IMG/VR virus record: IMGVR_UViG_3300024348_000026
Coordinates: 3,530 to 67,529 of that record
Strand: one strand, 5' to 3'
Source: a virus
DNA length: 64,000 nucleotides
Position numbers and translations under genes: made by a program. Positions 3,320 to 16,521 of this stretch are shown one piece after another. Below the pieces are notes generated by a model. It searched no databases and had not been told where the DNA came from. It saw only the letters and a program-made list of their open reading frames with translations. Each line of letters begins with the position of its first letter. The stretch's first letter is position 1.

Positions 3320-3685
3320 TTATTTATCGACAAACTCTTCTTTTATCATTTTGCGAAACTCTTCTTCGGTGGCAGTCAACCATCTGGCGGGTTCTCCGTC
3401 ATTAAACATCCACTTGCGAACACACATTTTTTGAGAAAGGAATCTGGCGTATGCCGCCTTTTTTAACCTATCTTGTGTGTTGCTGTCGGCAACTAGCCCC
3501 CACATTAGGAGTCCTCGCCATTCGTCCAATTCACGCCGAAAAAGCTCCTCATAAATTGAACCACAGTCAACTTTATCTCTCCCATGATTAGTCAAATAAG
3601 ATTTAACCGCCCCAAAGGCTTCAATCATTTCACGAATATTCATGATTCGCCCAAGAGCTTCTTCGATCATTTGTTTTTTGTTCAT
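3320..3685 (-). CDS. hypothetical protein (leaderless)
   Basis: ORF directly after a promoter. Confidence 0.7.
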   Translation of the reverse strand: MNKKQMIEEALGRIMNIREMIEAFGAVKSYLTNHGRDKVDCGSIYEELFRRELDEWRGLLMWGLVADSNTQDRLKKAAYARFLSQKMCVRKWMFNDGEPARWLTATEEEFRKMIKEEFVDK

Positions 3686-9831: not shown

Positions 9832-10076
9832 AGCCGAATACTAATCTATATCGATCTGATTGTCCATAAAATACTCGTCCTTATCCATAAATAATTCTTT
9901 CACAGTGTCTTCCGTAAAGGATTGGTGGATTAAAATTGTTTTAAATGTGTCGATCCAATCCTCCAAGCTTGCGTCCCAATTAAGGGTGAGTTGGACACTT
10001 TTAAATCTTGTTGGATCGCTAACGCTGATGGTTATGTTTTTAAGTTGATTGATCATAAACAGAAATTTTTGTAAAG

Positions 10077-10153
10077 TGGTAGCCAAGGCGGGACTCCAAC
10101 CCGCAAAACCTAGTTTCTAAAACTAGTATGTAAAGCAATTCCATCACTTGGCC
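10077..10153 (-). tRNA. tRNA-Leu(TAG), short variable loop
   Basis: acceptor GGCCAAG/CTTGGCT; anticodon arm CTAGT-TTTAGAA-ACTAG; encoded CCA. Confidence 0.85.
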
Positions 10154-10335
10154 ATTTTTTTAAAGACATGCTCCTCACTATCATCATCGGTAAAGATAAT
10201 TTCTTTCGCGGAGAGAAACATGTGAAAATCTTTGATAAACATTGGGAGTTTTAATTCTTTAATATCAGTGAATTCGTATCTAGAGTTCAGGTCTTCTCTG
10301 GTTAAATAAATAGTTCCATCGATGATTTCGCTCAT
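10144..10335 (-). CDS. hypothetical protein (leaderless)
   Basis: TTGCTT-N16-TAACAT-N6-ATG. Confidence 0.6.
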   Translation of the reverse strand: MSEIIDGTIYLTREDLNSRYEFTDIKELKLPMFIKDFHMFLSAKEIIFTDDDSEEHVFKKMAK

Positions 10336-10378
10336 AGGTATATGTTATAGATATTAAAGAATAAAGCAAGAAAATATT

Positions 10379-10596
10379 AACAAATATCAGTCGCTACTCT
10401 GATTAGAAGTCTTTTTTGGACCAATAGGATAAGCTTCCTTCGCACAAGCGTATTCAGCCATTCTATTTACTCCCCACACACGGGTTATCTCTTCGGTCAA
10501 GGTCGGATTACTCATATCAGCATTCTCGGTGTGTCTCCGTCTGATACTTTCGGCCAACTTATGTTCCTGCGTGTCTGCTTTCCACGCCGATTTGTT
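10379..10596 (-). ncRNA. ~218-nt tRNA-framed structured RNA
   Basis: closing stem AACAAAT/ATTTGTT; D-like arm GCGT-GGAAAGCAGAC-ACGC; T-like arm ATCAG-AGTAGCGA-CTGAT; long structured insert. Confidence 0.65.
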
Positions 10597-10601
10597 AAAA
10601 C

Positions 10602-10692
10602 TGGAAATGAGCAATGCTACTGGCGAGTAAGTCTCCAAGATCCCTCTCCTCCGCTTGCGCGGCAATAGCCCGTTTTTCATTGGGCGCTCATT
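10602..10692 (-). ncRNA. 91-nt CCA-ended structured RNA
   Basis: AATGAGC/GCTCATT-T-CCA; GCTATTG/CAGTAGC helix; CCGC-GCAA-GCGG GNRA hairpin. Confidence 0.6.
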
Positions 10693-10702
10693 ATTTGAAA
10701 AT

Positions 10703-10778
10703 TGGAGGGCGGTGTGAGAATTTAACTCACTTAAAGATGGGTTGCAATCATCTGCCTAAACAGTCGAGCCAACCGCCC
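10703..10778 (-). tRNA. tRNA-Cys(GCA)
   Basis: GGGCGGT/ACCGCCC-T-CCA; anticodon loop TTGCAAC. Confidence 0.85.
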
Positions 10779-10787
10779 ATTAAAAAT

Positions 10788-11300
10788 TTATTTTTGTAAC
10801 TCTAAAAGTTTTTCTTTTAAGCGTTCTTTTATAGCCCTTGAAGGTTTGTTATTATTAATACGAGGAAATTTTCCAGACTCTTTTATTGCTTCCGTTAATG
10901 CTCTAAGCATGGTTCCCGCATGACCAGTATATAGGAAAAACTCCATTACGTCTCCAGCTTGAGGACAAAGAATAACACTCAAGCCCATGTGTTCATATTT
11001 ACTGGAAGAAGGGACAATAAACCCAATACTACTCATAAACATTGTATCGTCAAAATGGAAGACTTTTACTTGAGGCTTGTCTGCCGCCCATTTTTCCAAT
11101 ATTTCTCCATAAACATAACCGCCCATTCCTTTTTCGTATTCTGGCGCGGAATGACGAAGAGCGTGAAGGTTTTCGTCTTCTGGGGGATCGTAATCGATGT
11201 CAATCAATTCGCTAAGAATCTTTTGTTGCTCTTCGGTCGCTTGAATCTCTTCATTGTCGATCCAATAAGAATCGCCTGAGTAGCCTGTGATTTCCTTCAT
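10788..11300 (-). CDS. hypothetical protein inside the tRNA array
   Basis: own promoter TTGACT-N17-TACTCT-N6-ATG (11307-11335). Confidence 0.7.
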   Translation of the reverse strand: MKEITGYSGDSYWIDNEEIQATEEQQKILSELIDIDYDPPEDENLHALRHSAPEYEKGMGGYVYGEILEKWAADKPQVKVFHFDDTMFMSSIGFIVPSSSKYEHMGLSVILCPQAGDVMEFFLYTGHAGTMLRALTEAIKESGKFPRINNNKPSRAIKERLKEKLLELQK

Positions 11301-11344
11301 GCGCAAAGAGTAGCGGAAAAAGAGAAGGAAGTCAAGAGGAAAAA

Positions 11345-11425
11345 TGAAGCGCGAGGAAGTTGAATCCTTTTTACTAAAATGCTTCCTTGCAAGGAAAGTG
11401 CTACACCCGTGTAGCCACGCGCCCC
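11345..11425 (-). tRNA. tRNA-Ala(TGC), atypical
   Basis: GGGGCGC/GCGCTTC with G3.U70; loop CTTGCAA; extended variable region; no CCA. Confidence 0.65.
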
Positions 11426-11511
11426 TTAAAATTGACAGAAGTTCAAAACTGTCATATAAACTTATTTTGTCAGACTGGTATAAGTGAGCCTTGATTGGCT
11501 TTTTAAAAAAG

Positions 11512-11584
11512 CAGTCCCACTCTTACTTGAAAAGAGAATTGAGGATTCAAAATCTTCTGTTTTAGCCAGCTAAACTATAGGGCA
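11512..11584 (-). tRNA. tRNA-Gln(TTG), degenerate
   Basis: D arm and CTCTT-TTCAAGT-AAGAG T arm intact; loop TTTTGAA; mismatched acceptor. Confidence 0.5.
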
Positions 11585-11663
11585 ATTAAATTTAAGCATT
11601 TTCTGCTTTTCTATTTTTAAATCAAAAAATTTGTGTAAAGAAGGTTAGCTCTATTTATCTATC

Positions 11664-11981
11664 ATGAATCGCGAATTATTAATCAAGGCCCTTTCTTTTC
11701 TTACCTCTATAGGGCTTGCTATTACAGGCTATTTTTTAGCGGATACTTACGCTAAAATGGACGGAATGAGAAAAGATATTACTGAACTACAGATTAGCTC
11801 AGAGAGAGTAAGTGCTAGTAGATTTTCTTCTTCTGATTTCGTAAAAGCGAAAGAGATTATTGACTCTCAGATTGTCGCCACAGACAAAAGAGTTATTGCT
11901 TTAGAAGAGTCTCAGAAAACAATTAAAGAGTATTTGGTTGAAATGAAGACCGATATTAAAGAGATTAAAAATCAGAGATAA
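11664..11981 (+). CDS. membrane-anchored coiled-coil (holin/XhlA-like) protein, antisense to the tRNA array
   Basis: N-terminal TM segment plus coiled coil; GTGTAA motif at 11633. Confidence 0.6.
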   Translation: MNRELLIKALSFLTSIGLAITGYFLADTYAKMDGMRKDITELQISSERVSASRFSSSDFVKAKEIIDSQIVATDKRVIALEESQKTIKEYLVEMKTDIKEIKNQR

Positions 11982-11990
11982 GATCTGACT

Positions 11991-12734
11991 TTATAATGTT
12001 TTTATAAAAGCTTTATTTATTTGCTCGTCCTTTAAAATAAGAACACTGACGCCATTTTGCTCGCGAACTTTTTTAATTTTTTCTTCATCTTTGACCGCTA
12101 AAAAATCATTCTTAGGGTCAAGATATATGTTTTTATCTATTAAGTAAAAGTCAGGAAAGTATTTTTTATTATCGTATTTTAAATATTTTGGCCTAATCCA
12201 CTTAATATCCAAGTCGTCTAGTATCTCTGCCGTTCTTTTTTCGTAACTAGATTGTAGGCAAACTTCATTGCCAAAACTATCTTTTACATAATATTTATTA
12301 CTGCGTCCCGCCTTAGCCCGATAACCTCCTTGATTGCCATTTTTATTACCTTTGTGAGAGAAATGCTTAAATTTTTCTTCTTCTGACAAATTATCTATAA
12401 ATAATTTAAAAGCATCCTTACTAGAACGAGTTTTTAATAACCCTCTTTTTTTAGCTTGGCTAGTTGTTAACTGATTAATGCCATGTTTTTCCAACAAATC
12501 TCTATAAGAAAGTCCAGAATCGTATTCTTTTTGAATAAAATCCCAATCGACAGCATCTATTTGGGATTTTCTAGGCTTGTCATCGAGCCCTTTTGGGCCA
12601 GAAAAGGCGCAGCTTTTAAATCCAAATTTTTTTAACCAATATTTGATTGTAGATTGGCTACAGGAGTATTTCTCAGCAATTTCTCTTTGAGATAATTTTT
12701 GTTTAATCAACCTTTCTAATTCGAATTTATTCAT
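11991..12734 (-). CDS. HTH plus PD-(D/E)xK free-standing homing-type endonuclease
   Basis: LSQREIA...SQSTIKYWLKK HTH; QSSYE...YFPDFYL...YLDPK. Confidence 0.8.
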   Translation of the reverse strand: MNKFELERLIKQKLSQREIAEKYSCSQSTIKYWLKKFGFKSCAFSGPKGLDDKPRKSQIDAVDWDFIQKEYDSGLSYRDLLEKHGINQLTTSQAKKRGLLKTRSSKDAFKLFIDNLSEEEKFKHFSHKGNKNGNQGGYRAKAGRSNKYYVKDSFGNEVCLQSSYEKRTAEILDDLDIKWIRPKYLKYDNKKYFPDFYLIDKNIYLDPKNDFLAVKDEEKIKKVREQNGVSVLILKDEQINKAFIKTL

Positions 12735-12790
12735 ACTCATTATTACACGATTTTGGTCAAACGAGTATTTTTATTTTAGTCAAATTACAG

Positions 12791-12866
12791 TCCTCCCGAC
12801 TCGCATCGAACGAGTAATTTCCAATTATCAATCGGAGGTTATATGTGCCGTTTTAACTACAGGAGG
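12791..12866 (-). tRNA. tRNA-Ile(GAT)
   Basis: CCTCCTG/CGGGAGG; TCCGA-TTGATAA-TTGGA; TTCGA T loop. Confidence 0.85.
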
Positions 12867-12872
12867 TAAAAT

Positions 12873-12947
12873 TGGAGGGTCGTCAGAGATTTTAACTCTG
12901 TTCTTCCTTCATACCAAGAAGGGCTTCAACGTCAAAGCTTACGGTCC
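12873..12947 (-). tRNA. tRNA-Thr(GGT), two acceptor mismatches
   Basis: CCTTC-TTGGTAT-GAAGG; encoded CCA. Confidence 0.65.
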
Positions 12948-12955
12948 ATTAAAAG

Positions 12956-13038
12956 TGGATCTGGAGGTGAGATTCGAACTCACGGTGTTGTATTCCTACT
13001 TACAAGGTAGGTGCTTTCGACCACTTAGCGACTCCAGA
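12956..13038 (-). tRNA. tRNA-Thr(TGT), extended variable loop
   Basis: TCTGGAG/CTCCAGA-T-CCA; CCTAC-CTTGTAA-GTAGG. Confidence 0.9.
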
Positions 13039-13163
13039 ATATAAAATTTAACACTAGACCTTTTGTTATGTTTCTTGGTCCTTCTAGAGAGGACAACTAG
13101 CGTAATATTTAATCATTTTTATGGGTAATTAATCCACTACTCGCGAAAAAACATTAAAAAATA

Positions 13164-13252
13164 AGAAAGACATGAAGATCGAACTCAAAAACTTCTTAGG
13201 ACCTCCCTCTAATTAACAATTAACGACCACCACCGAGGCGGCATTATCTTCC
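13164..13252 (-). pseudogene. degenerate class II (Ser-like) tRNA
   Basis: GGAAGAT acceptor, long variable region, TTCGA loop, weak anticodon arm. Confidence 0.4.
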
Positions 13253-13261
13253 ATTTAAAAT

Positions 13262-13348
13262 TGGAAGAACACTGAGCAATCCAAGCCCATGACCTTCGAC
13301 CACCATCATCTTTCCAAAATGCGCCCCAAGCTTAGGGGTTAATACTCC
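13262..13348 (-). tRNA. tRNA-Ser(GGA)
   Basis: loop TTGGAAA; long variable arm; G.U-rich acceptor; CCA. Confidence 0.65.
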
Positions 13349-13357
13349 ATTTAAAAT

Positions 13358-13464
13358 TGGTTCGGCCCCCGATCAGGTCGCTCATTCAAGCCGTTGCAAA
13401 AACCTACGGATTACGAGAAAGAGGATCGAATTCCCTCCTTGAATACCCTCATTGCGGGGTCCGA
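13358..13464 (-). ncRNA. K-turn CCA RNA, copy 1
   Basis: CCCCGCAATGAGGG...GAGCGACCTGATCGGGG...ACCA. Confidence 0.65.
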
Positions 13465-13467
13465 AAT

Positions 13468-13590
13468 TGGTGCGGTGGCAGTTCGTCAATACTGCCTTGC
13501 AAGGGACTCCGAAATACCCTATGATCTCCTTTTTCTAGTATAGGCCGAGATTTCCTAACTTTTACTTCGGGTTTTTTTGACTATACCGCA
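13468..13590 (-). ncRNA. 123-nt CCA-ended tRNA-like RNA
   Basis: TGCGGT/ACCGCA-CCA; T-like arm GGCAGT-ATTGACGA-ACTGCC; CCGAAGTA/TATTTCGG helix. Confidence 0.6.
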
Positions 13591-13598
13591 TTGAAAAT

Positions 13599-13674
13599 TG
13601 GTGGCCAACATCAGATTCTAACTGACAATACAAAGTTCGTAGCTTTGCGTGATATACAATTTCACTAATCGGCC
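13599..13674 (-). tRNA. tRNA-Arg(ACG)
   Basis: CAAAG-CTACGAA-CTTTG; CCA. Confidence 0.9.
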
Positions 13675-13680
13675 TTAAAT

Positions 13681-13757
13681 TGGTCCGCGAGGTCAGGCTT
13701 GAACTGACATTATACTCTTTCACAAAGAGGACTTTTACCATTAAAGTTACTCACGGA
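13681..13757 (-). tRNA. tRNA-His(GTG) with U-1:A73
   Basis: T-CCGTGAG/CTCGCGG-A-CCA; loop TTGTGAA. Confidence 0.85.
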
Positions 13758-13765
13758 TTAAAAGA

Positions 13766-13923
13766 TTTCCCCACTACCGAAAATCACAGTGACTATTTCC
13801 TATCGGTCGCTACCCCAATCATACTTTAATTTGCGTCGGATTACTATATTAGCCCTCTAGAAGCGACCTAGACGCTCGTTAATATAGCGCATTATGGGAT
13901 CTTTGTCCATAATGGTGAGGAAA
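13766..13923 (-). ncRNA. 158-nt multi-hairpin RNA with complementary loops
   Basis: TTTCCTCAC/GTGGGGAAA closing stem; CATTATGG/CCATAATG; GCTATATTA/TAATATAGT; loop GTCGCT complementary to AGCGAC. Confidence 0.65.
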
Positions 13924-13926
13924 AAT

Positions 13927-14000
13927 TGGTGCGCCGTGCGGGAGTCTAACCCGCGCTTGATACTTGGAAGGAACCCGTGCTAACGTAACACTTACAGCGC
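13927..14000 (-). tRNA. tRNA-Gly(TCC)
   Basis: GCGCTGT/ACGGCGC-A-CCA; loop CTTCCAA. Confidence 0.85.
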
Positions 14001-14007
14001 ATAAAAA

Positions 14008-14094
14008 GGTGAGCGGGATACCTCGTAATTATTGTGAATCAGGCGTGGATGTTGTCCCATTGGATCGCCACTTATATCACTCATACGCCGCTCA
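14008..14094 (-). ncRNA. 87-nt irregular long hairpin RNA
   Basis: TGAGCGG/CCGCTCA-CC closing stem with nested short helices. Confidence 0.45.
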
Positions 14095-14102
14095 TTGAAA
14101 AC

Positions 14103-14178
14103 TGGCCCCTGTTGGTAGAATTGAACTACCGTCTCAAGATCTTCAATCTAGCGCTAAGGCCAACTCAGCTAAACAGGG
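14103..14178 (-). tRNA. tRNA-Phe(GAA)
   Basis: CCCTGTT/AACAGGG-G-CCA; loop TTGAAGA. Confidence 0.9.
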
Positions 14179-14185
14179 TAAAAAT

Positions 14186-14277
14186 TGGCACTATCCCTTG
14201 GGCTTGAACCAAGATACCGTTCTAGACGGAATACAACATCTTAACAGGATGCCCTCTTGCCATTAGAGTAGGATAGT
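14186..14277 (-). tRNA. tRNA-Asn(GTT) with a long variable arm
   Basis: ACTATCC/GGATAGT-G-CCA; GCATC-CTGTTAA-GATGT; extra CCGT-CTAGA-ACGG hairpin. Confidence 0.85.
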
Positions 14278-14282
14278 AAAAT

Positions 14283-14356
14283 TGGTGAACCGCCACGGTA
14301 ACTCTCCGTGTTCTAGATGTTAAAAGCATCTTGCATCAATTTAATGCTTGCAGTCC
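14283..14356 (-). tRNA. tRNA-Lys(TTT)
   Basis: AGATG-CTTTTAA-CATCT; non-canonical T loop AGAGTTA; CCA. Confidence 0.85.
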
Positions 14357-14373
14357 ATTAAAAAATCATAAAA

Positions 14374-14664
14374 TTGGCTTTTGAATTAAACGGAATCTTC
14401 CATTATGAACCTATATATGGAGAAGAAAAATTAGATAAAATCCAAAACAATGATGAGCGAAAATTCGCAGCCTGTCGAGAAGCTGGTATTTCATTATGTA
14501 TAATAGACACAAGCTCTCAAAAATACGTCAAGCCTAATACTTCTAAAAAATACTTGGATATTATCATTGAGATTATAAATAAGCACACGGATAAGAAATC
14601 GAATCTTACTCACAAAGATTTGGAGTCTTCGTCGCCTAGCCTTGGAACATGCCCGTGCGTTTAA
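14374..14664 (+). pseudogene. C-terminal fragment of a Vsr/PD-(D/E)xK homing-type endonuclease
   Basis: LAFELNGIFHYEPIYG...DERKFAACREAGISLCII; N-terminus missing; runs into tRNA-Trp. Confidence 0.65.
14584..14658 (-). tRNA. tRNA-Trp(CCA)
   Basis: GAAGA-CTCCAAA-TCTTT; TTCGA T loop; no encoded 3' CCA. Confidence 0.75.
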
Positions 14665-14668
14665 AAAT

Positions 14669-14760
14669 TGGAGGATAACTGAGGTGTCGATCCCCATCCC
14701 GCTACTAACGGAATCACCTGTTTTCAAGGCAGAGTCGCAAGCCGTTGCGATAAATTATCC
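14669..14760 (-). tRNA. tRNA-Ser(TGA)
   Basis: GGATAAT/GTTATCC-T-CCA; loop CTTGAAA; long variable arm. Confidence 0.85.
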
Positions 14761-15781: not shown

Positions 15782-15810
15782 AAAAAAGCCCAACTTTTTA
15801 AGGGTTGGGC
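15782..15810 (-). terminator. intrinsic terminator (attenuator)
   Basis: GCCCAAC-CCTTAAAAA-GTTGGGC-TTTTTT. Confidence 0.85.
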
Positions 15811-15833
15811 CAAAAAAAATCATTTTTTAGCCC
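15807..15833 (-). promoter_or_regulatory. antiterminator hairpin
   Basis: GGGCTAAAAAA-TGATT-TTTTTTGGCCC sequesters the GCCC of the terminator 5' arm. Confidence 0.65.
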
Positions 15834-15838
15834 CTGAG

Positions 15839-15904
15839 TCACCCACGATCCCACTCGCAATTAATTGCGGGTTTCTGCGTGAGTGATGTAAAGGAATATC
15901 TCAT
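15839..15904 (-). CDS. leader peptide MRYSFTSLTQKPAINCEWDRG
   Basis: 21 distinct codons, 18 amino acids; stop 5 nt before the antiterminator; GTGTAA motif at 15928-15933. Confidence 0.75.
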   Translation of the reverse strand: MRYSFTSLTQKPAINCEWDRG

Positions 15905-15945
15905 TTTAATAAAGCTGTCGAAGCTTCTTACACTAATAATACTCA

Positions 15946-16521
15946 TTACCACAAATTTTTCAAGAAATAATTCCATTCTTGGCGAATTTTTTCTGCATTA
16001 AGCATTAAGGCTGGAATTGCAGGTGGTTTTGGTATTTGTCCATTCTTATCATGCCAAGGAGTCAGGTCTGCCTTTTTGAGGTTGCATTTGCGGCAAGCTA
16101 GAACGAGATTATTATGATCGTTGCTGCCGCCCTTGCTCTTTGGATGAATATGATCGAGGGTTAAATCTTTTAAATGATATTTTTCAAAACAATATTGACA
16201 AGTATAGTCGCAAAGTTTTGCAAGATCAAATAAAGTTAATTTTGTTTTTTTTGGTTTTCTGAAGAATTTGCTTGTTACGATAATTACTGTAGGAATTGGC
16301 CAACCTGCGTGGGCGCTTCTTAAGAACGGTTGATCATCATAATATTCTGCTTGACTATTCCAGCTATCTAAAGAATGAAACACAGAACTGTTTTTGTCTA
16401 ACGCGGAAATTCTTTTTTTATGCAAATGCTGAAATGCGGCCCGTGCGGTGACAACTGTAATTGGTTGCCATGCGTTATTAAGAAGCAGGGTTGTTTTTGT
16501 ATTTGCTGTTACAGCGTTCAT
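15946..16521 (-). CDS. HNH endonuclease (McrA-like)
   Basis: LLLNNAWQPI; CQYC...TLDHIHPKSKGG...NLVLACRKCNLKK. Confidence 0.9.
   Translation of the reverse strand: MNAVTANTKTTLLLNNAWQPITVVTARAAFQHLHKKRISALDKNSSVFHSLDSWNSQAEYYDDQPFLRSAHAGWPIPTVIIVTSKFFRKPKKTKLTLFDLAKLCDYTCQYCFEKYHLKDLTLDHIHPKSKGGSNDHNNLVLACRKCNLKKADLTPWHDKNGQIPKPPAIPALMLNAEKIRQEWNYFLKNLW

Follow-up and report, generated by a model that had tools for sequence, protein, structure and literature searches.

Why should a virus place, immediately in front of its tRNA genes, a tiny open reading frame (ORF) that uses almost every amino acid once? This question is raised by a locus on the minus strand of a 64,000-nucleotide stretch of viral DNA (positions 3,530 to 67,529 of the IMG/VR record IMGVR_UViG_3300024348_000026), hereafter the window. 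The record is 67.5 kb long and is judged to be about half complete, and searches with the region against GenBank phages, using both megablast and blastn, found no match, while a search with the rIIA-like protein indicated only that no close cultured relative exists. A preliminary description of the locus, made from the sequence alone, proposed that the ORF is the leader of a 'pan-codon' attenuator, in which the loss of almost any host tRNA, for instance through anticodon nucleases or starvation, would stall the ribosome and allow transcription to read through into the tRNA array. We therefore sought to establish whether the element is real, whether it is conserved, and to what extent its anatomy supports such a role.

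Every sequence statement in that description proved to be correct. The ORF, MRYSFTSLTQKPAINCEWDRG, extends from an ATG at 15904-15902 to a TGA at 15841-15839, and comprises 21 sense codons, all of which differ, specifying 18 amino acid types, with no His or Val and with Arg, Ser and Thr each occurring twice through two different codons. The stop codon is followed by 5 nt (CTCAG) and then by a hairpin (A; 15834-15807) formed by GGGGCUAAAAAA and UUUUUUGGCCC, the last bases of which, GCCC, are also the start of a predicted intrinsic terminator (T; 15810-15782), comprised of GCCCAAC, a 9-nt loop, GUUGGGC and U6. A further hairpin (H1; 15886-15839, around CGCAAUUAAUUGCG) lies within the ORF in the minimum-free-energy fold, with its 3' arm ending at the stop codon, and might represent a pause hairpin that the ribosome must open. 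The frame is also open further upstream, with in-frame ATGs at 15946, overlapping the stop of the preceding gene, and at 15976, a point absent from the preliminary description.

The surroundings of the ORF are equally distinctive. Upstream lies a gene for a McrA-like HNH endonuclease of 191 residues (16521-15946), which matches HNH families in PHROG, and whose homologs match PF13395, PF01844 and PF14279. A sigma-70-like promoter (P1; 15963-15936), TTGAAA-16-TATTAT with 10 of 12 matches in a promoter scan, has its -35 element in the last codons of the HNH gene. It is followed by GTGTAAGAA (15933-15925), in the start region of the leader transcript, and by a 20-nt untranslated stretch bearing a small hairpin (15927-15911; GAAGCU-UCGAC-AGCUUU), which is a window-specific insertion, as relatives have only 6-9 nt between the motif and the ATG. 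The preliminary description had called the GTGTAA within GTGTAAGAA a promoter motif; it is indeed part of a promoter region, but GTGTAAKAA is not a repeated motif of the window (3 matches against 1.26 expected). A second sigma-70-like promoter (P2; 15741-15714), TTGACA-16-TAAAGT preceded by an A-rich stretch, lies between the terminator and the array and likewise had not been mentioned. Beyond P2 come structured RNA and then the tRNA array (15427-10077), beginning with tRNA-Glu(UUC) at 15427-15352. Neither the leader nor the neighboring structured RNAs matched any Rfam family.

Could such an ORF arise by chance? Of 46,268 open 21-codon windows in the six frames of the 64 kb, 200 have all codons different, but only this one has 18 or more amino acid types, and none of 13,488 windows inside long ORFs does. 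Independent draws from the codon usage of the phage give probabilities of 1.7e-4 for 18 or more types and 4e-3 for all codons being different, whereas shuffles preserving local base composition give about 0.001 for the amino acid count but only 0.02-0.04 for codon distinctness. Hence, the unusual property is the variety of amino acids rather than that of codons as such.

The comparison with relatives indicated that this is not a chance ORF. An exact 23-nt pattern search of IMG/VR returned nothing, and a neighboring protein of 234 residues led only to one distant locus without tRNAs or DNA similarity. In contrast, the HNH protein has many homologs at 50-92% identity, the closer ones at 82-92%, and anchoring on its alignment in IMG/VR yielded 72 loci, in 59 of which tRNAs follow the HNH gene. 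The same module follows the HNH gene in L004, L006, L014 and L015, and, with a small extra ORF inserted, in L003 (L numbers here and below denote relatives). A pattern scan of IMG/VR and of metagenome contigs added single-nucleotide variants and L179, and a generic search for a short ORF followed by a terminator between the HNH gene and the first tRNA uncovered a second, much more diverged group, comprised of L007, L009, L017, L020 and L024. Two further patterns, one of GTGTAAGAA followed by ATGMGATAT and one based on ATATTC, gave 48 stretches, of which 4 were real and already known, and 115 stretches, which re-found only known loci. In all, we recovered 15 sequence variants, 10 close and 5 distant, representing 13 peptide types. 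tRNA-Glu is also the first tRNA in L003, L004, L006, L007, L009, L014, L015, L017 and L020. Contigs from four DNA sequencing runs gave one additional variant, in run X4, which differs from the window by R2K, N15S and D19N and lacks 10 nt of the untranslated hairpin, while no RNA run was found to contain the sequence. The module is not a constant feature of this synteny: in a crude pattern-based sort of the 72 anchored loci, 14 have it, 11 have TTGACA within 60 nt of the HNH stop, and 47 show other arrangements.

Across the 15 variants several aspects of the anatomy are retained despite considerable sequence divergence. The ORF is 20-21 codons long in 15 of 15, with TGA, TAG and TAA all used as stops, although peptide identity between clades is only 24-57% (5-12 of 20-21 residues), and the stop lies 29-37 nt from the 5' arm of the terminator. 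The terminator itself, CCCARC...GYUGG(G)-U5-9 with a G+C-rich stem of 5-7 bp, is present in 15 of 15. H1 occupies the second half of the ORF and ends at the stop, and is more stable than shuffles at p<=0.05 in 14 of 15, with unrelated arm sequences in the distant group. The segment after the stop is complementary to the region holding the 5' arm of the terminator at p<=0.05 against shuffles in 13 of 15 variants, and at p<=0.08 in 15 of 15, through quite different sequences; the antiterminator structure shares CCC(A) or more with the 5' arm of the terminator, though by our reading L092 overlaps by only about 1 nt. In L179, L024 and L009 the post-stop segment is a near copy of the 3' arm of the terminator directly after the stop, the classic sign of alternative pairing. 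The antiterminator arm begins 0-7 nt after the stop in 14 of 15 variants, inside the footprint of a terminating ribosome, as the preliminary description had proposed for the window. RNAalifold on a MAFFT alignment recovered only the terminator, because that alignment is not structure-aware, and these conclusions therefore rest on per-sequence folds and shuffle tests.

The promoters too recur in the relatives. By our reading, TTGAnn-16/17-TAnnAT is found at the position of P1 in 12 of the 13 relatives whose upstream sequence was inspected (L084, L088, L092, L100, L128, L135, L142 and L179, in the 80 nt upstream, and L007, L009, L020 and L024), L017 showing only a weaker TTAGAA-18-TATAAT. GTGTAAGAA is invariant in 8 of 10 aligned close variants, and in distant relatives the same position reads GTG followed by TATAAT, TAAGAT, TAAAAT or TATTAT, a -10 hexamer 6 nt before the start codon. 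In 8 of 13 peptide types such a -10-like hexamer (GTG-TAnnAn) lies exactly 6 nt before the start codon, so the mRNA may be leaderless. After the terminator, GTTGACAAA, belonging to P2, is conserved in the relatives.

The signs that the ORF is translated are indirect. The start codon is ATG in 12 of 13 types and GTG in L007, and its AAAATG context without a Shine-Dalgarno motif is the norm for the genes of this phage. Over six partly overlapping close pairs, synonymous changes are in excess (Sd 14, Nd 20, pN/pS 0.43, binomial p 0.014 against the site proportions), though the counts are small. Residue 2 is always polar, and basic (R, H or K) in 9 of 13 types, through the codons AGA, CGA, CAT, AAG, GGA and AGT, as well as AAA in the X4 contig. 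Amino acid diversity is high only in the reading frame, with a mean of 15.8 types against 13.2 in each of the other two frames.

The 13 peptide types show 18, 17, 16, 17, 19, 16, 15, 16, 12, 16, 16, 14 and 13 amino acid types in 20-21 residues, against a null mean of about 13 (sd 1.4) even for a flat amino acid distribution. The clade z-scores are 3.3, 2.8, 2.6, 4.3, 2.3, 1.6, -0.7, 1.9 and 0.2, that is, positive in 8 of 9 clades. Conditional on the peptide of the window and the observed divergence, random replacement predicts about 13.9 types, against which L100 keeps 19 of 20 at p=4e-5, L128 has p=0.017 and L123 p=0.03, the others ranging from 0.07 to 0.30. A gradient of base composition along the leader, from AU-rich through C-rich to G-rich, does not explain this diversity, because block shuffles raise the null mean only to about 13.3 and the other two frames sit at 13.2. 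The property is nevertheless not obligatory, as diversity is ordinary in L009 (12 of 21) and L024 (13 of 20). His is missing from 12 of 13 types, whereas the absence of Val in the window is not a family trait, most relatives having it. No residue occurs more than three times. Rare-codon bias of the leader is not significant (p 0.087), and the leader does not mirror the array: at a relaxed threshold ARAGORN finds tRNAs for 15 amino acids in the array of the window, with none for Tyr, Lys, Ala and Asp of the leader, while His of the array is absent from the leader.

To examine whether ribosome position might select between the two structures, as had been suggested as a check, we folded each leader with a ribosome footprint held unpaired, from 15 nt before to 12 nt after the first A-site base. 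With the stop codon in the A site, the equilibrium probability of the terminator helix is 0.7-1.0 in 15 of 15 variants. With the A site at codons 2-10 it falls to <=0.1 in 7 of 10 close variants (the window, L088, L128, L142, L100, L179 and L123), is partial in L092 and in L084, which switches only weakly, and remains about 1 in L135. The natural variants L135, L146 and L190 carry an uncompensated G-to-A change in the antiterminator arm and are predicted to terminate always. In 0 of 5 distant variants was the switch reproduced, the terminator winning at almost every ribosome position, with dips to 0.0-0.4 at a few codons in four of them, and never falling below 0.7 in L009. In the absence of a ribosome the probability is 0.02-0.04 in the window and L179, but 0.55-1.00 in the other 13. 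A trp-like anti-antiterminator, with the start region pairing with the 5' arm of A, which would make the absence of translation lead to termination, initially looked attractive but is significant in only 2 of 15 variants and was dropped as a general feature. Thus, the equilibrium model supports the proposed logic for the close group, whereas for the distant group the switch would have to rest on folding kinetics.

We favor, with moderate confidence, the view that the element is a leader-peptide (ribosome-mediated) transcription attenuator with its own promoter, placed just upstream of the promoter and genes of the tRNA array. In this view, P1 would start a short RNA whose first feature is the 20-21-codon ORF, and a ribosome translating quickly to the stop codon would cover the 5' arm of A, so that T forms and the P1 transcript ends. 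If the ribosome were slow, stalled at any codon in roughly the first two-thirds of the ORF, or, in the version of the window, absent, A would form first, T would be blocked, and the polymerase would run on through P2 into the structured RNAs and tRNAs. As the leader has no run of one amino acid and samples 15-19 types in most lineages, the signal would be general decoding speed or tRNA supply rather than one amino acid. Because P2 lies after the terminator in all members, the array does not depend on read-through, which could only add to the transcription from P2, presumed constitutive, giving a negative feedback on the supply of phage tRNAs. What our analysis establishes is the anatomy, its conservation and covariation, the signatures of the ORF and the equilibrium folding predictions; translation, termination, read-through and the nature of what is sensed are inferred, there being no expression, termination or ribosome data. 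The most defensible statement is that of a translation-coupled attenuator that modulates P1-derived transcription into the array, and the interpretation offered in the preliminary description is accordingly supported only in part. In particular, nothing links the element specifically to anticodon nucleases, which would represent one of several conditions that slow decoding.

Other explanations must be weighed against this view. The unit from P1 to T might be an independent gene for a stable small RNA of about 115-135 nt, possibly also coding for the peptide, that acts in trans, with T simply its terminator and H1 and A parts of its fold. Its own promoter, strong terminator and conserved structure are compatible with this, as is the dispensability of read-through given P2, and the most conserved stretch in the close group is the single-stranded 5' end, AUGMGAUAUUUUAUU, as in many sRNA seeds; moreover, attenuator RNAs and their peptides are reported to act in trans, as in rnTrpL/peTrpL of Sinorhizobium. 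However, this reading does not explain the constant ORF length, the placement of the stop just before A, the pairing of A always with the 5' arm of the terminator, or the folding of the window's RNA to A rather than T at equilibrium, which would make a poor terminator for an sRNA gene. We regard it as unlikely on present evidence, though it does not exclude attenuation.

A functional micropeptide, or an arrest peptide sensing a specific ligand or factor in the style of TnaC or SecM, appears more doubtful still. The pN/pS ratio, the N-terminal motif M-[RHK]-Y-[FS] and the pattern YSxxSxxQxxP, which by our reading are shared between the window and L017-type peptides with synonymous differences, and N-x-E-W near the C-terminus in four types, speak in its favor. 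Against it are the low identity between clades, the replacement of the seemingly invariant Asn by Ser in the X4 contig, where the change falls in a hairpin loop, and the tendency of the C-terminal residues to track the G-rich 3' arm of H1. Furthermore, the peptide is not hydrophobic, its 35-residue form has no family hit, and there are no neighboring modifying enzymes. Least likely is an ordinary operon-end terminator of the HNH transcription unit, shielding P2 from incoming polymerases, with a chance ORF in front of it. T does follow the HNH gene and precede a strong promoter, and codon distinctness is only weakly significant once local composition is kept; but a dedicated predicted promoter separates the HNH gene from the ORF, ORF length, H1 and A are kept to the extent described above, diversity is frame-specific, and relatives without the module have no terminator between the HNH gene and P2.

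Among described systems, the leader-peptide attenuators of enterobacterial amino acid operons (trpL, hisL, pheL, leuL, thrL and ilvL) likewise combine a short leader ORF, mutually exclusive antiterminator and terminator structures, control by ribosome position (for the phage element inferred from geometry and folding), and a hairpin inside or after the ORF that could pause the polymerase. The phage element differs from them in having near-maximal variety instead of a codon run for the amino acid whose pathway is controlled, no well-supported anti-antiterminator, a start codon only 6-20 nt from the -10 region, a second promoter after the terminator, and tRNA genes of a phage behind it; it is not a classical amino-acid-specific member of this class, and there is no sequence relationship. 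The closest functional precedent is the whiB7 (wblC) uORF of mycobacteria, where stalling gives antitermination, knock-down of genes for 18 of 20 amino acids, including tRNAs and synthetases, activates read-through, the M. smegmatis uORF holds every amino acid but Cys, and a single Trp codon suffices for Trp sensing (PMC10274678). Hence, a general sensor with one codon per amino acid is experimentally established in bacteria. However, the whiB7 uORF is variable in length, Ala-enriched, and controls a transcription factor for drug resistance in Actinobacteria, whereas the ORF described here is fixed at 20-21 codons, has no enriched residue and precedes phage tRNA genes, and homology between them is not expected. 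Antibiotic-responsive leader-peptide attenuators before ABC-F and other resistance genes also pair a short leader ORF with a terminator/antiterminator pair as a sensor of generally slowed ribosomes, the role proposed here, but they respond to drug-bound ribosomes and are not known before tRNA genes or in phages. The long tRNA array (trn operon) of Anabaena is an additional array whose transcription rises when translation is impaired (PMC8421152, PMC10272220), but this is a bacterial system reportedly controlled by a protein repressor, TrcR. Our literature searches found no account of leader-peptide control of phage tRNA genes.

A further, more speculative possibility is that selection keeps the leader as a near-pangram, so that loss of any one host tRNA or charged amino acid, through starvation, host shut-off or an anticodon nuclease defense, would stall the ribosome, open the antiterminator and boost transcription of the phage's own array, making it a self-correcting tRNA-supply circuit carried by a virus. 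This reading is plausible but unproven, and we consider it tentative at best. Phage tRNA arrays are usually discussed in terms of codon usage and, recently, of escape from tRNA-cleaving defenses, and little is known of how their expression is controlled. The element is small (about 150 nt) and portable, which makes it easy to test in vitro, and it could also serve as a compact reporter of translation stress. A translation-speed attenuator in front of such an array would be a direct feedback between decoding capacity and tRNA supply, reusing the logic of the trp operon for RNA genes without bias towards one amino acid.

The McrA-like HNH gene (window positions 15946-16521, minus strand) lies directly upstream of a tRNA array in 59 of the 72 loci that were anchored on this gene (L003-L074), and this arrangement extends down to about 30% protein identity. 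This is a conserved synteny rather than a sporadic homing endonuclease. At the 3' end of this gene in the window, the frame of the leader ORF is open further upstream (15944-15976, minus strand), with in-frame ATGs at 15946, where a TAATG overlaps the HNH stop to give a 35-codon ORF, and at 15976. We did not observe this overlap downstream of the HNH stop in those relatives whose sequences were inspected.

In the anchored locus L003 (4604-4775), a lipoprotein-like ORF of roughly 55-60 codons by our count from the sequence, which begins MKAKIFTLIASLVLLNSC, is situated between the promoter motif and the leader ORF, and the leader in this locus starts 7 nt after the stop of that ORF. In L007, L020 and L024, an extra conserved element, which begins GGCTCATGACGAGGGAGTGCC, is inserted between the terminator of the leader and the array promoter, and a comparison with Rfam recovered no match for it at gathering score. 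In L017 and L019, an HNH-like ORF, which begins MKSHKVKYNRQEY, is inserted between the terminator of the leader and the tRNA array, which starts about 1.4 kb after the anchor gene.

The first element transcribed from P2, the predicted promoter of the array, is a conserved structured stretch (CAUCAACGGCAGCGAGCGCC ... GGUCCGAAAGGGAGAUUAGGGUG) that precedes the first tRNA. It is located at about 15705-15640 on the minus strand of the window, and is also present in L006, L014, L010-L013, L022 and L023, but has no match in Rfam. At 10066-14760 in the window, a search with ARAGORN at a relaxed threshold added Ser(tga), Gly(tcc), Thr(ggt), Cys(gca) and a second Asn to the 12 tRNAs that were found with the default settings. 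The array also holds many structured units other than tRNAs, as noted in the preliminary description.

Finally, a survey of the long ORFs of the window indicated that the genes of this phage lack Shine-Dalgarno (SD) motifs: among 59 ORFs of 120 aa or more, GGAG or GAGG occurs upstream of one each, and the start contexts are A/T-rich. This hints at a host that initiates without SD pairing.
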